A DNA stretch of 17,374 bases from Promethearchaeia archaeon (GCA_046483985.1 JAWOCD010000010.1:1-17374); one strand, 5' to 3'; counted from the first letter of the stretch, positions 10,157-17,374 are shown. Program-made: numbers and translations. Notes: a model not told the origin generated them from the letters alone.

Positions 10157-11221
10157 CTAAAATTGAGCAATTTCCATGGCCACTTCATCCATTTCTTCTC
10201 TATCCCGTGTCTTCTCTTCTTGCGGATTACGTTTATAATAAATGTATAATCCCGCCAGAATCAAAGCTATAGGGAGTATTACCAAGTAGAGAAAAAATAG
10301 AAAATCGTTCCAAGGAAAGATACGTTCTGGCGCAAATCGGTTTAAATTCCATATAATAAGAATAGTTAACAAGTATGTTGTAATAAAATTAGCCAATGGA
10401 TCCATTGAGCGTGTCAGCCCCATACCCCTTTTACGTTTTCCAGTTATAGGCCAGATGAGATTGGAACCCAACCATCCAAACTGATCTACGATTACATGCC
10501 CCCAAACTCCGCCAACGACGATTCCTATAATGGTAAGAATCTGAAAATCAGTAAGCGTTACTCCATTAATTAAATAGAGGTATCCAGCAGCAATAGCCAT
10601 CAGAATTCCGAAGAAAATACCAATCGTGAGAGAGTGAGACCATCGACGATGCCATTGAATAAAATCGGCATAAATTTTATCTTCTTCTCTTCGGAATTGG
10701 AATGTCGGCCCATCCCATATATCCACATGAGTGACATCTTCATAGGAATATTCTAAATCTGGTTTATATTTTACTACTGCTATCTTTTCCTCTTCGGGTT
10801 CCGATCCTTTAATGATTTCTAAACCGGTGGTAATTAATGGACCAATTCTCACTTCCACTTCTTTTGCCTTTTGCCTGAATAATACCGAATATCTGCGCCA
10901 TAAGCCATTAGGCAACCGTAAAGTATGAAGTTTGAGCTTAACTGGGTCTTCGGTTTTATATGATCTGTTGATTGCTTCTGCGATCCCCTCAGCCACTCTC
11001 CACGGATCCAGTTCATGGTAGCCTGGACTTACTGCGATATCTTCACGCTCTAAATATCTGCTGAACTTAAAATCGAGAAAGTCGGGTAAATATCCAAATA
11101 ATCCTCCGATTGGTATTAACATAGTAAGTAAGACCAAATCGGGATCATATGCTGCGCTGACGACTACTGGAAAAAACGTCGCCACACAGACTCCTGTCAT
11201 AAAATGTGTTAAACCTTTCAT
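10157..11221 (-). CDS. YdjM-like membrane-bound metal-dependent hydrolase with ~130-aa soluble insertion
   Basis: Motifs MKGLTH, LPDFLD, HRRWSHSL, HVIVDQ and G..LIWP, plus several TM segments. A Shine-Dalgarno AGGAGGT lies at 11240-11234. Confidence 0.8.
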   Translation of the reverse strand: MKGLTHFMTGVCVATFFPVVVSAAYDPDLVLLTMLIPIGGLFGYLPDFLDFKFSRYLEREDIAVSPGYHELDPWRVAEGIAEAINRSYKTEDPVKLKLHTLRLPNGLWRRYSVLFRQKAKEVEVRIGPLITTGLEIIKGSEPEEEKIAVVKYKPDLEYSYEDVTHVDIWDGPTFQFRREEDKIYADFIQWHRRWSHSLTIGIFFGILMAIAAGYLYLINGVTLTDFQILTIIGIVVGGVWGHVIVDQFGWLGSNLIWPITGKRKRGMGLTRSMDPLANFITTYLLTILIIWNLNRFAPERIFPWNDFLFFLYLVILPIALILAGLYIYYKRNPQEEKTRDREEMDEVAMEIAQF

Positions 11222-11233
11222 TTTTTATTTTAT

Positions 11234-11240
11234 ACCTCCT
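11234..11240 (-). promoter_or_regulatory. Shine-Dalgarno site of the YdjM-like gene
   Basis: AGGAGGT overlaps the upstream TAG, 12 nt before the ATG. Comparable sites precede the other internal operon genes (12586-12581, 13450-13445, 14308-14303). Confidence 0.6.
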
Positions 11241-14293: not shown

Positions 14294-17200
14294 TACTTGT
14301 TCTCACCCGCTGAGGATTCAAAGGTATACGGATCATCTTTTTCCTCCTTTTGCTTTAATTTCTTTATTAAGAGTTTTTGTTTAGTGATTTTGGTCTGCAA
14401 ATCTTTTACGAGTTCATTTAAGGGGGATTTTTGGTCCTCTGAAATATTTTCCATTTCTTCCTTAAGCGCTTTTTTCTCTTTCTGAATTTTAAACATTTTA
14501 TCCTTCAGTTCTTGAATCTTTCTTTCTTGCTCAGCTAATGCGTCCGCTAAATTCCCGTGGTCTTCTTGTGCTTTAATATTCTCTGTTTCCTTTTCAATTT
14601 CCCCGATTTGCGATACATAGGAATCCATTTTATTGTCCTTTTGCCTTAATCTTTGCTCGAGTTCTCTCACTCTTTGCTTAAGATATTCAGTAGAGAGAAG
14701 AGATTGGAGGTCTCTTTCCGCATCGAATGCAATATAGCGATTTTCCCGATATTTCAGGATGGCAACTCTGTCAATGGGCGTGAGGTATTTTCCTTTTTCT
14801 ATCAATTGGTGACTGTGTTTTATATAATTTCTGACAAATTCACTCGGTTCAATATCATCCAACGGTTCCCCTTCCTCATTTAGGTGAGGAACCCTTACCT
14901 TCTCTCCATACATTTCGTGTACGCTCTGTCTTATATCATTTATATCAACGGGTTTCTCCTTTTTCGGGGGTTCTGTCTTTACTGCCTTTTTTTCTCTTAA
15001 CCTATCCCTGGCAAATTCTTTTTTCTTTTGAATTTTCCTTTTCCGTCTTCGAATGCTGTATCCAAATCCGAGGATACCCACATATAATACGGAAGCAACT
15101 GGGAGCCAGAATAACCACGTCGTAGTCTCCAAAAAGCCGTTTTCATCTTCTGGTTCCCCCGGATTTGATACCGAATACCCTCCCCAATCATAGTTAAATA
15201 ATTGTACATAATAGGAAGCCACCTCCGTACTATTCACAATTATCCCGATTTCACGATTTCTTGTGGCGGAATTTTCGTTCCAGTTCAAGGACGAGATCAG
15301 TACAGCCTCTTTATCTACAATAAGCGCTTTAACATGAAATTTCTCTATTCCTCCGGAGTTGTTTGAGTATTTGATTTGAACGCCGTGTGACTTGAGAATC
15401 GCAGCTGCTTCGTCATTATTATTATCCCCTTCTAAATTGTACCAAGTAGAATCGAGGATCACTTTTACGCTTACACCCCTATCAGCAGCATCGATAAGGG
15501 CATGCATAAGCGGATTGTTATTTTGTCCGCCATAATAATACGGCCATGTTGGATATAAGTAAAATAATTCAGCATATATACTGTCTTGAGCTTGGTTGAT
15601 TAAATCAACCACGACTTGGATTGTTTCATCTGGACCAACGACCGTCTGAAATGTGGCATTAATTGTATTGTAAGTTTGAGGCTCCTCAAAAAGGGGTTCG
15701 TAATTTCCCTCTAAGATCTCATCGTTTTTCTTGGGACTTACCACGTCAAAATCAGAGTAATTCTGAGCTAAATTCCAATCGAAATTATAGACATTTAAAT
15801 ATTTTGCAGTAATATCTGTGTTATTTACCGCAATACCCCAGCCTCGGTTTCCTGCCGAAGAGTCTTTAGGTATACCTGTATATTTAAAATTCTCGGTGGA
15901 AATTAATACCGTTTCATTATCAATTAGGAAATATTTCGAATGATAATAATTCAAGAATTTACCGCTGACCAGTCTGACGGTTCCGTTTTCATGGCCATTG
16001 ACATGATTTGCCACATATACCACTTCATTTGCCTCATCAGTACCGCCATTTTCTAAAGATGCTCCCGGATATATACCTTCCAGTAGTAATCTCACATGAA
16101 CACCTCGATCTAAGGCAGCAAGGACTTCTTGTAAAATCCAATAAGATGTAAATTGATAGACACAGATATCCAAATTATGCTGAGCTGAACCGAAAAGTTG
16201 TGTAAGAGCATTAAATGAATTATCAGGGGAGCTAAAGGCTGTAACAGTAGCATTTTCACTTATTGAACTTGAAAGGAAAAGTGAACTATTTGAGTGTTTT
16301 CCTAAGGAAGGAACTGTATCATATCTCCAATCCTGGCTAGAATTGGTATCCACATATTCATCATTTTGGTTGGGATTATAGAGTCTTGTAAGAGCAATAT
16401 CCTCTTCAGCGCTACTTCCGATGTATATCCCGTCACCATTCCAGCTTGAATTGTCGATAGTTTCTACAAATGGATCACTGCTCCGATATGCGACCCTATC
16501 AATGATGGTTTTGAAAGGATCAGTCAGAATTATATCTTTTGGGGCACTGTTAGGAAGTGTAAAATCTCCGCTGCAATTTAAACCGCTAAATCCGTATTCT
16601 CCGCTCCATGCTGATGCATCTCTCATGACCACCAAATAGGAATTTGCTGGAATGATTAAATCAGAAGGGAATCGTGTATCTTCACCACTGGTCCAATCGT
16701 CTGAATTCCAAAGTGACCAATTGCCCACATTTAAATCGGAATTTAAGGTGTTATATATCTCAATATATTCAAAATCTGAATCAGTTCCATTAGGATTAAT
16801 CATAATTTCCGTAATAAGAGCGCTTCCTGGTGTATCGGGATTATATTGAGGTAATGCTCCGGGTGTTGGACTCGATGTAAACCAGTCTGATGGTAGATTA
16901 TTATCCTCTAATCCTTGAGCTTTGGTTAAATTATACCTTTGAATCGATTCTCCAGAATCACTAGGCGCCGCAACGGTATCATTACTATTCCAATAATAGG
17001 TATTTTTATGTACATCTTCATCAAGATCTGAACCATAAAGGACCGCATCAACTACATCTCCGGTACTATTTCTTAATAAAACCCAATCTCCGTCATCCTT
17101 TAGGCTTATTGTAATATTAAAATCCGTGTTCGCATCGTCATCTCCAAGAGTTATCACCTCATAACCTTGAATTGTAATAGAGGGCAAACTCCGATTATAG

Positions 17201-17374
17201 TTTCCATCGTCTATTTCCCATCCGCTTAGATTTAAATCATGTCCAATTGGATTATATAATTCAATCCATTCTGCACTTCCACTCTGACCTCCATTTGAAA
17301 CAACTTCGCTAATGCAAATATTAGTTGCTTGAGATGAGACCTGTAGTTCACTTTCGTAATCAATGGTCTTAGCG
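14293..17374 (-). CDS. Type I membrane protein: 2 lamin-tail domains + 2 PLD (HKD) domains + TM + cytoplasmic coiled coil (5' end outside window)
   Basis: The frame stays open to the window edge, beyond the TTG at 17187 (..ICISEVVSNGGQSGSAEWIELYNPIGHDLNLSGWEIDD.. = LTD1). LTD2 is LITEIMINP...EYIEIYN...NVGNWSL. Both HKD motifs are intact: HSKYFLID...STENF and HVKALIVD...SSLNWN...NREIG. The TM segment WLFWLPVASVLYVGILGFGYSI is followed by RRRKRK and a ~250-aa charged tail. Confidence 0.88.
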   Translation of the reverse strand, partial: AKTIDYESELQVSSQATNICISEVVSNGGQSGSAEWIELYNPIGHDLNLSGWEIDDGNYNRSLPSITIQGYEVITLGDDDANTDFNITISLKDDGDWVLLRNSTGDVVDAVLYGSDLDEDVHKNTYYWNSNDTVAAPSDSGESIQRYNLTKAQGLEDNNLPSDWFTSSPTPGALPQYNPDTPGSALITEIMINPNGTDSDFEYIEIYNTLNSDLNVGNWSLWNSDDWTSGEDTRFPSDLIIPANSYLVVMRDASAWSGEYGFSGLNCSGDFTLPNSAPKDIILTDPFKTIIDRVAYRSSDPFVETIDNSSWNGDGIYIGSSAEEDIALTRLYNPNQNDEYVDTNSSQDWRYDTVPSLGKHSNSSLFLSSSISENATVTAFSSPDNSFNALTQLFGSAQHNLDICVYQFTSYWILQEVLAALDRGVHVRLLLEGIYPGASLENGGTDEANEVVYVANHVNGHENGTVRLVSGKFLNYYHSKYFLIDNETVLISTENFKYTGIPKDSSAGNRGWGIAVNNTDITAKYLNVYNFDWNLAQNYSDFDVVSPKKNDEILEGNYEPLFEEPQTYNTINATFQTVVGPDETIQVVVDLINQAQDSIYAELFYLYPTWPYYYGGQNNNPLMHALIDAADRGVSVKVILDSTWYNLEGDNNNDEAAAILKSHGVQIKYSNNSGGIEKFHVKALIVDKEAVLISSLNWNENSATRNREIGIIVNSTEVASYYVQLFNYDWGGYSVSNPGEPEDENGFLETTTWLFWLPVASVLYVGILGFGYSIRRRKRKIQKKKEFARDRLREKKAVKTEPPKKEKPVDINDIRQSVHEMYGEKVRVPHLNEEGEPLDDIEPSEFVRNYIKHSHQLIEKGKYLTPIDRVAILKYRENRYIAFDAERDLQSLLSTEYLKQRVRELEQRLRQKDNKMDSYVSQIGEIEKETENIKAQEDHGNLADALAEQERKIQELKDKMFKIQKEKKALKEEMENISEDQKSPLNELVKDLQTKITKQKLLIKKLKQKEEKDDPYTFESSAGENK

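Follow-up and report, generated by a model that had tools for sequence, protein, structure and literature searches.

A conserved OB-fold, TctA-like and YdjM-like gene module in an Asgard archaeon, with a possible role in the uptake of extracellular nucleic acid

In Methanococcus maripaludis, two adjacent genes are required for natural transformation: MMJJ_13020, which encodes an OB-fold protein with one transmembrane (TM) segment, and MMJJ_13030, whose TctA-like product has 11 TM segments (Fonseca et al. 2023, PMC10133366). In-frame deletion of either gene abolishes transformation, both deletions could be complemented in trans, and deletion of the TctA-like homologue of Methanoculleus thermophilus causes the same loss. 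The authors proposed that the TctA-like protein is an archaeal DNA transporter standing in for ComEC; YdjM-like proteins, PLD enzymes and catabolic neighbours are not mentioned in that paper (PMC10133366). Here, we describe a locus in a 17,374-nt stretch of DNA from a Promethearchaeia archaeon (GCA_046483985.1, JAWOCD010000010.1:1-17374; the whole stretch is hereafter called the window). Five genes on its minus strand encode, head to tail, a surface enzyme with LTD and PLD domains (LTD-PLD), two OB-fold membrane anchors (OB1 and OB2), a TctA-like membrane protein and a YdjM-like membrane protein. By analogy, the locus is most likely an enlarged version of the M. maripaludis pair. We give about an even chance to the reading that it is a cell-envelope machine which captures extracellular nucleic acid, most likely DNA, and imports it mainly as food.

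The M. maripaludis pair is the sole genetic lead on archaeal DNA import without ComEC. Like that pair, the window locus sets a membrane-anchored PF01336 OB gene beside a gene for a TctA-family permease, in a host without ComEC. Both OB1 and OB2 are PF01336 proteins with a single TM segment, and the TctA-like gene lies 1 nt downstream of OB2 on the same strand. TctB and TctC partners are likewise missing: TctC (PF03401) had no match in the window genome, which is 97% complete, and TctB (PF07331) had none above the cut-off, with two sub-threshold matches on other contigs. Unlike the pair, the window encodes a duplicated OB protein, and both paralogues combine a zinc ribbon with two OB folds. It also has a YdjM-like subunit, a surface LTD-PLD and linked genes for the catabolism of deoxynucleoside monophosphates (dNMPs), which the published description lacks. 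The core OB/TctA pair is already known genetically and the system is not categorically new. A preliminary description of the window, made from its sequence, had stated that no characterised system of such a composition was known, and this was too strong in view of the published pair. Besides PMC10133366, a literature search found no paper linking TctA with YdjM, OB folds or DNA uptake. The YdjM-like third subunit, its predicted complex with TctA, the LTD-PLD accessory, the spread into bacteria and the catabolic wiring are not described in the searched literature.

The locus can also be compared with bacterial ComEC, which is made of a DUF4131 OB fold, a Competence channel and a metallo-beta-lactamase domain. 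In both, an OB fold outside the cell, a polytopic conduit and a metal-dependent hydrolase would be combined. Unlike in ComEC, the parts encoded in the window are separate proteins of unrelated families (TctA versus Competence, YdjM versus Lactamase_B), and the hydrolase site is predicted to be cytoplasmic. The ComEC Competence domain (PF03772) itself had no match in the window genome. With the TctABC transporters (TTT family, TC 2.A.80), the locus shares the large subunit, to which PF01970 can be aligned nearly from end to end (E 5.8e-28, full-length match at profile positions 3-422 of 423). In contrast to TctABC, the match is divergent at only 98 bits, the partners are OB-fold anchors and a YdjM-like protein, and the gene context is related to nucleic acid, not to organic acids. 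Two surface nucleases are similar in other respects. ExeM/NucH (LTD, OB and EEP nuclease; PMC6085458) and Hvo_1477 of Haloferax volcanii (a thermonuclease lipoprotein; PMC3929857) are tethered to the cell surface, have LTD and/or OB modules and allow extracellular DNA to be used for growth. Unlike in these, the catalytic domain encoded in the window is of the double-HKD PLD type, the OB folds are placed on separate anchors and a putative dedicated conduit belongs to the operon.

Gene order and conservation of the module

The window genome belongs to the Asgard archaea (Promethearchaeota) and has a size of 4.06 Mb. As shown in Table 1, the five open reading frames (ORFs) follow each other closely, with intergenic spacings of -1, 3, 1 and 17 nt. 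Shine-Dalgarno-like motifs (GGGTGAG, GAGGTG, GGAGGT and GGAGGT) are located 6-12 nt upstream of the four internal starts. The spacings assume that the TctA-like protein starts at the second ATG (12570), giving the 443-aa form present in databases; the longest ORF, from 12588, would reach 17 nt into OB2. Each of the five products was found to have one or more hydrophobic segments. The preliminary description had already reported the tight same-strand spacing, a Shine-Dalgarno motif at every internal start (four out of four) and the membrane nature of all five proteins, and the ORF positions, motifs and hydrophobic segments bear this out. Its domain calls were all confirmed by Pfam and NCBIfam.

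Table 1. Coordinates of the five-gene locus and neighbouring genes in the window
Feature	Coordinates	Strand	Remarks
LTD-PLD surface enzyme	14293-17373	-	5' end open at window end, N-terminus absent
OB1 anchor	13442-14293	-	Pfam PF01336 OB
OB2 anchor	12572-13438	-	Pfam PF01336 OB; directly upstream of TctA-like
TctA-like (DUF112) polytopic membrane protein	11239-12570	-	Pfam PF01970; alternative start 12588
YdjM-like membrane metal-hydrolase candidate	10157-11221	-	Pfam PF04307
Small membrane protein, 210 aa	9372-10004	-	Weak Pfam/NCBIfam matches only
DNPH1/NDT-fold-like, putative dNMP N-glycosidase	8349-9377	+	Weak Pfam match
DeoC deoxyribose-phosphate aldolase	7576-8247	+	PF01791, 8e-22

The TctA-like gene is present in only 5 of 41 close relatives, and the order PLD-OB1-OB2-TctA-YdjM was found in all four other relatives that carry it. 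Among 400 genomes of the phylum, strong OB2 matches were obtained in 11, five of which belong to distant families, including Njordarchaeota. Across all Promethearchaeota loci, OB1 is kept upstream of OB2. Njordarchaeota have one OB gene, of greater length, ahead of the TctA-like and YdjM-like genes, with identities of about 30-37%. A wider scan was performed with the YdjM-like profile against one genome per prokaryotic species, and the 71 loci obtained were scanned with hidden Markov models built from our own alignments. The TctA-like gene lies directly upstream, on the same strand, at 61 of these 71 loci, and one to three OB genes are also found upstream at 52 of them; the exceptions are mostly at contig ends. 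The gene order is far beyond chance, because it recurs in all four TctA-carrying relatives and in dozens of distant genomes, and a chance adjacency of the five genes was rejected on the same grounds. This conserved co-occurrence supports the earlier proposal that the genes form one functional module.

The YdjM-like loci span five archaeal phyla (Promethearchaeota, Njordarchaeota, Thermoplasmatota with DHVE2/Aciduliprofundum and Methanomassiliicoccales, Aenigmatarchaeota, and Desulfurococcales) and at least six bacterial phyla (Chloroflexota, Verrucomicrobiota, Lentisphaerota, Planctomycetota, WOR-3, Wallbacteria and others). The module thus reaches Asgard archaea, DPANN, Thermoplasmatota, Thermoproteota and several bacterial phyla. 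A single protein with four to six OB domains takes the place of separate OB anchors in Chloroflexota, as a result of fusion. The YdjM-like subfamily is small but broad, with 191 clusters at 50% identity (E<=1e-30) among 1.84 billion representatives. When longer proteins were sought with the YdjM-like profile, no fused forms were found, which is weak evidence either way.

LTD-PLD is joined to the core in at least five lineages. It is located directly downstream of the YdjM-like gene in one Aenigmatarchaeota, one Thermoplasmata and two Chloroflexota loci. The invariant core consists of the OB, TctA-like and YdjM-like proteins, to which a surface phosphoesterase with LTDs is repeatedly added as an accessory. 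The five-gene system as first proposed therefore holds for the core trio, which is conserved, and not for LTD-PLD, which comes and goes. An OB/TctA pair like that of M. maripaludis is thus part of a larger conserved module with a YdjM-like subunit, predicted to interact with TctA, and often with a surface HKD enzyme.

Several single loci show related arrangements. The TctA/LTD-PLD association recurs outside the trio at L130 (G400:C12, 1837-6152), where the gene of an LTD-PLD-PKD protein (909 aa) comes directly after that of a second, more distant TctA paralogue (529 aa), with a serine recombinase gene upstream. Beside the trio in a Thermoplasmata-like genome (L091, 9584-14983, minus strand), a giant surface protein combines four LTDs with a purple-acid-phosphatase N domain and a PHP phosphoesterase domain, and is a different LTD-linked phosphoesterase in the place that PLD takes elsewhere. 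A giant neighbour of the trio in another Thermoplasmata-like locus (L060, 11384-17044, minus strand) was matched with an LTD query. At a Thermoplasmata locus with a solo YdjM-like gene (L056, 6629-7954, plus strand), the place of the TctA-like gene upstream is taken by a gene whose 441-aa product weakly matches Zn-dependent phospholipase C (Zn_dep_PLPC, 7e-5) and has a Big_7 domain, and a wyosine-formation radical SAM gene is found downstream.

In a maximum-likelihood tree of 32 YdjM-like proteins, the window protein grouped with Thermoplasmatota, Aenigmatarchaeota and some bacterial versions (support 99/99). The YdjM-like protein of Njordarchaeota, which are also Asgard archaea, fell elsewhere, apart from the Promethearchaeota versions. 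This grouping, together with the patchy distribution in 5 of 41 relatives, suggests that the module or the whole island moves horizontally; as the tree is unrooted, it names no donor.

Predicted properties of the gene products

OB1 has a Cys4 zinc ribbon at its basic, predicted cytoplasmic N-terminus, followed by one TM segment (residues 49-67) and two OB folds, and PF01336 matched it in two stretches (1e-11). OB2, also matched in two stretches (5e-12), has a similar architecture and is paralogous to OB1 (27% identity). The OB folds are placed outside the cell because in these proteins the N-terminus is basic and bears the Cys4 motif and the C-terminal part is acidic, so that the two anchors together would display four extracellular OB folds. 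The AlphaFold2 model of OB2 (pLDDT 89.4) consists of a short zinc ribbon, a TM helix (51-77) and two OB barrels. When this model was compared with the PDB using Foldseek (E<=1e-3), 185 matches were obtained, with tandem-OB single-strand binders on top. These included Teb1 AB (3e-8), RPA70 DBD-A/B with single-stranded DNA, Thermus and Deinococcus SSB, HIN-200 and archaeal RPA. The modelled OB2 ectodomain is therefore best described as an RPA-like tandem OB. DUF4131 (PF13567) had no match in the OB proteins of the window itself, and those of related loci gave sub-threshold matches (1.5e-5 and 7.7e-6).

The part of LTD-PLD encoded in the window contains two LTDs (3e-30) and two PLDc_2 domains (2e-40), and full-length orthologues have 1610-1899 aa with five or six LTDs. 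Two intact HKD motifs are present, HSKYFLID...STEN at 478 and HVKALIVD...SSLN at 680. They include both the HxK(x)4D and the (G/S)(S/T)xN signatures of the HKD superfamily, and both motifs are conserved in five orthologues. A single TM segment (about 753-771) is followed by a basic tail of about 250 aa with a long coiled coil, predicted to be cytoplasmic. N-glycosylation sequons number 20 in the ectodomain versus one in the tail. The tail (window positions 14293-15120) is also kept in orthologues, and a tblastn match in genome G037 spans residues 808-893.

The HKD superfamily includes phospholipases and cardiolipin synthases as well as nucleases. The best NCBIfam matches of LTD-PLD were DrmC and NucT, not cardiolipin synthase, all of them far below the equivalog cut-offs, and the nearest solved chains were Zucchini/MitoPLD, Nuc, PLD4 and NucT. 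The weaker matches include TIGR04265 and the "phospholipase" chain 7e0m. As judged from these similarities, LTD-PLD is nearest to the nuclease-type HKD members. A role as housekeeping cardiolipin synthase was considered unlikely, given the great size of this surface protein, its many LTDs and its affinities of nuclease type; against this rejection, LTD-PLD is the sole PLDc_2 gene in the window genome.

The TctA-like gene is the only member of its family in the window genome, and 35 columns are invariant among 17 TctA-like sequences from archaea and bacteria. The YdjM-like protein matched PF04307 with 44.3 bits against a cut-off of 29 bits, the match being split by an insert. Its AlphaFold2 model (pLDDT 88.6, pTM 0.83) shows six TM helices, and the insert, which comprises residues 62-187 (about 130 aa), is rich in beta structure. 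Among 32 diverse homologues from archaea and bacteria, H6, D47, D50, H191, H196, H242 and D246 form an invariant cluster. In the same set, the net charge is +2.9 for the loop 248-274 and close to 0 for the two loops opposite it. Because of this positive-inside pattern, the protein most likely has both termini inside, so that the whole His/Asp cluster would lie on the cytoplasmic side, as would the insert. The preliminary description had suggested that the system hydrolyses its substrate outside the cell with two different phosphodiesterase chemistries, which is unlikely since the metal site of the YdjM-like protein most likely faces the cytoplasm.

The same description had also made the YdjM-like protein a relative of the Zn phospholipase C/P1 nuclease superfamily, and fold searches did not confirm this. 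The model had no match in the PDB at E<=1e-3 with Foldseek. In VIA fold searches, the best Z was 6.2 in the wide search and 4.1 in a second look, both at noise level. Sequence searches of the PDB with the YdjM-like and TctA-like profiles returned nothing. Weak matches to small beta-barrels (CusF, exosome Csl4 and a cold-shock domain) did not hold up.

When the TctA-like and YdjM-like proteins were co-folded, ipSAE values of 0.75, 0.76 and 0.75 were obtained in three runs, versus 0.00 for the best of three controls. The mark used was reached by 58 of 80 solved complexes and by 2 of 110 mismatched pairs, counts that hold only roughly here because our own alignments were used in co-folding. The runs agreed in at least 80% of contacts, and the pLDDT of the partners was at least 73. 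The predicted interface is formed by TctA residues 136-182, which include the invariant stretch SEWPKD, and by YdjM helices 2-59 and 275-303, and it adjoins D47 and D50 of YdjM. The modelling supports the view that the TctA-like and YdjM-like proteins bind each other, and so gives the membrane complex supposed in the preliminary description a predicted interface.

Catabolic neighbours and possible role of the locus

Of the 41 relatives, the five that carry the module are precisely those with a DNPH1-like gene. DeoC was found in eight of the 41, namely the five module carriers and three others. In two genomes (G009 and G039), the DeoC and DNPH1-like genes follow directly after the YdjM-like gene on the same strand, forming a string of seven genes. 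At the other Promethearchaeota loci, both are rearranged and no more than 4 kb away from the YdjM-like gene; DeoC is within this distance in all five loci whose contigs reach far enough. In Aenigmatarchaeota (L055, JBKHKA010000010, 1-11160), a deo string runs co-directionally straight into OB-OB-TctA-YdjM-LTD/PLD. It consists of deoC and genes for a phosphopentomutase-type enzyme (deoB), pyrimidine nucleoside phosphorylase (deoA), cytidine deaminase (cdd) and purine nucleoside phosphorylase (deoD). This locus is possibly a 10-gene DNA-salvage operon in a DPANN archaeon. Elsewhere, the Desulfurococcales module is flanked by genes for adenine deaminase and an amidohydrolase, an HD/HD_assoc_2 (HD/dNTPase-like) gene is found downstream in the DHVE2 loci, and one Njordarchaeota locus has adenylosuccinate synthetase and lyase genes upstream. 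Judged by association, this context speaks for a scavenging of nucleic acid or nucleotides, and in at least two lineages the module is physically wired to deoxynucleotide or deoxynucleoside catabolism. Nucleic acid had been named as the likeliest substrate in the preliminary description, and the RPA-like OB folds, the nuclease-type HKD affinities and the attached catabolic genes are in line with this.

Taken together, these features are compatible with the following mechanism, in which we infer the substrate, the topology, the catalytic activities and the passage of a polymer or of fragments. Outside the cell, the tethered LTD-PLD would nick or trim DNA, and the four RPA-like OB folds of the two type-II anchors would hold the single strand or its fragments. 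The divergent TctA-like protein would serve as the membrane conduit. In the TctA-YdjM complex, the His/Asp metal cluster would be located at the cytoplasmic face beside the invariant SEWPKD loop of TctA. There, the YdjM-like site could hydrolyse the entering strand or oligonucleotide to dNMPs and so make the import irreversible. The dNMPs could then be passed to the DNPH1-like N-glycosidase and DeoC, so that DNA would be mainly food in this lineage. Extracellular DNA may accordingly be a food source for some Asgard archaea of sediments.

It is a more tentative and rather doubtful proposition that the module is a widespread ComEC-independent polynucleotide importer of archaea and many bacterial phyla, with TctA repurposed as a conduit, an RPA-like OB array and YdjM as a ratchet. 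If this were true, cutting of the strand by the YdjM-like protein would ratchet the import without ATP and deliver dNMPs straight to the DNPH1-like/DeoC shortcut, and a first function would be assigned to the YdjM/DUF457 family.

Several observations weigh against the uptake of DNA as food by this locus. The strongest internal caveat against direct DNA binding is the acidity of the OB ectodomains, which have 9-15 K+R versus 39 D+E over about 216 residues; few aromatic or basic OB columns are conserved, which is unusual for DNA binders. The LTD-PLD ectodomain is acidic too (36 K+R versus 109 D+E), and the acidity of both may be a general trait of surface proteins in this organism or an argument against direct DNA binding. 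We know of no TctA member that passes a polymer, nor of hydrolase activity in any YdjM-family protein. Eight of the YdjM-like loci are truly solo, without a neighbouring TctA-like gene. The relatives examined are kin, so the match of the DNPH1-like gene with the module in all five carriers may reflect one island inherited or transferred whole; their co-occurrence counts as a single event or a small number of events and not as five separate ones. The likeness to MMJJ_13020 and MMJJ_13030 is one of Pfam families, architecture and adjacency, from which orthology is presumed. Word-indexed protein searches, made with the TctA-like protein and with a profile of 17 sequences, yielded nothing beyond close relatives and a few distant matches and did not reach Methanococcus. 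Finally, ComEC (PF03772) was found in all four bacterial trio carriers checked (L079, L071, L093 and L069; G404-G407). Because all of these have ComEC, the module is not simply a ComEC substitute, and in bacteria it adds to the ComEC route.

The last point would suit a tripartite-style transporter for small breakdown products (dNMPs, NMPs or very short oligonucleotides) instead of a polymer, in bacteria that keep ComEC for polymer uptake. In such a transporter, the OB anchors would replace TctC, the six-helix YdjM-like protein would replace the TctB scaffold, TctA would run its ordinary anion cycle, and the PLD nuclease would supply the substrate from outside. The TctA family consists of secondary transporters of small anions, and both the full-length PF01970 match and the known chemistry of the family fit this proposal. 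With no TctC found and no TctB above the cut-off, substitutes would be needed; the YdjM-like protein is predicted to pack on TctA through TM helices, a surface nuclease is encoded upstream, and the co-occurring DNPH1-like enzyme is a putative direct user of dNMPs. However, arrays of 4-10 OB folds and an RPA-like tandem suit an extended strand better than a mononucleotide, and an invariant His/Asp cluster at the cytoplasmic face would have no obvious job if only mononucleotides entered. The published OB/TctA deletions abolish plasmid transformation, for which a polymer must be imported if the genes are orthologous. We regard a transporter restricted to small products as the main rival reading, though a rather unlikely one.

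The same genetics, obtained in two methanogens, could also indicate that the locus serves mainly natural competence for transformation, as was proposed for M. maripaludis, with the catabolic neighbours only loosely related to it, for example through the recycling of the degraded strand. The lack of ComEC in the window genome and the RPA-like OB folds agree with this. Against it stand the phyletic distribution of the DNPH1-like gene, which matches that of the module exactly, and the co-directional catabolic genes in two Promethearchaeota genomes and the Aenigmatarchaeota locus; moreover, a hydrolase at the cytoplasmic face would destroy the entering DNA. Genetic and nutritional uses are not mutually exclusive, and a role mainly in transformation appears improbable. 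A substrate other than nucleic acid (phospholipid head groups, cardiolipin or teichoic-like polymers, with OB folds that bind glycans and PLD as a lipid or polymer phosphodiesterase) could draw on TIGR04265 and chain 7e0m among the weaker HKD matches, the very acidic OB ectodomains and the weak Zn_dep_PLPC neighbour of one solo YdjM-like gene, but it is very improbable given that the best HKD matches are of nuclease type (DrmC, NucT, Zucchini, Nuc and PLD4), that the structural neighbours of OB2 are all nucleic-acid binders and that in at least four lineages the surrounding genes speak for the metabolism of nucleosides, nucleotides or bases.

The window also carries the gene of a small membrane protein (Table 1), placed between the operon and the DNPH1-like gene. 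In this protein, three or four N-terminal TM segments with a weak YgjV/SemiSWEET-like match precede a C-terminal half that is soluble. The protein may, but need not, belong to the system, and could act as a small carrier of nucleosides or ribosides. The gene is kept beside the DNPH1-like gene in genomes G009 and G281.

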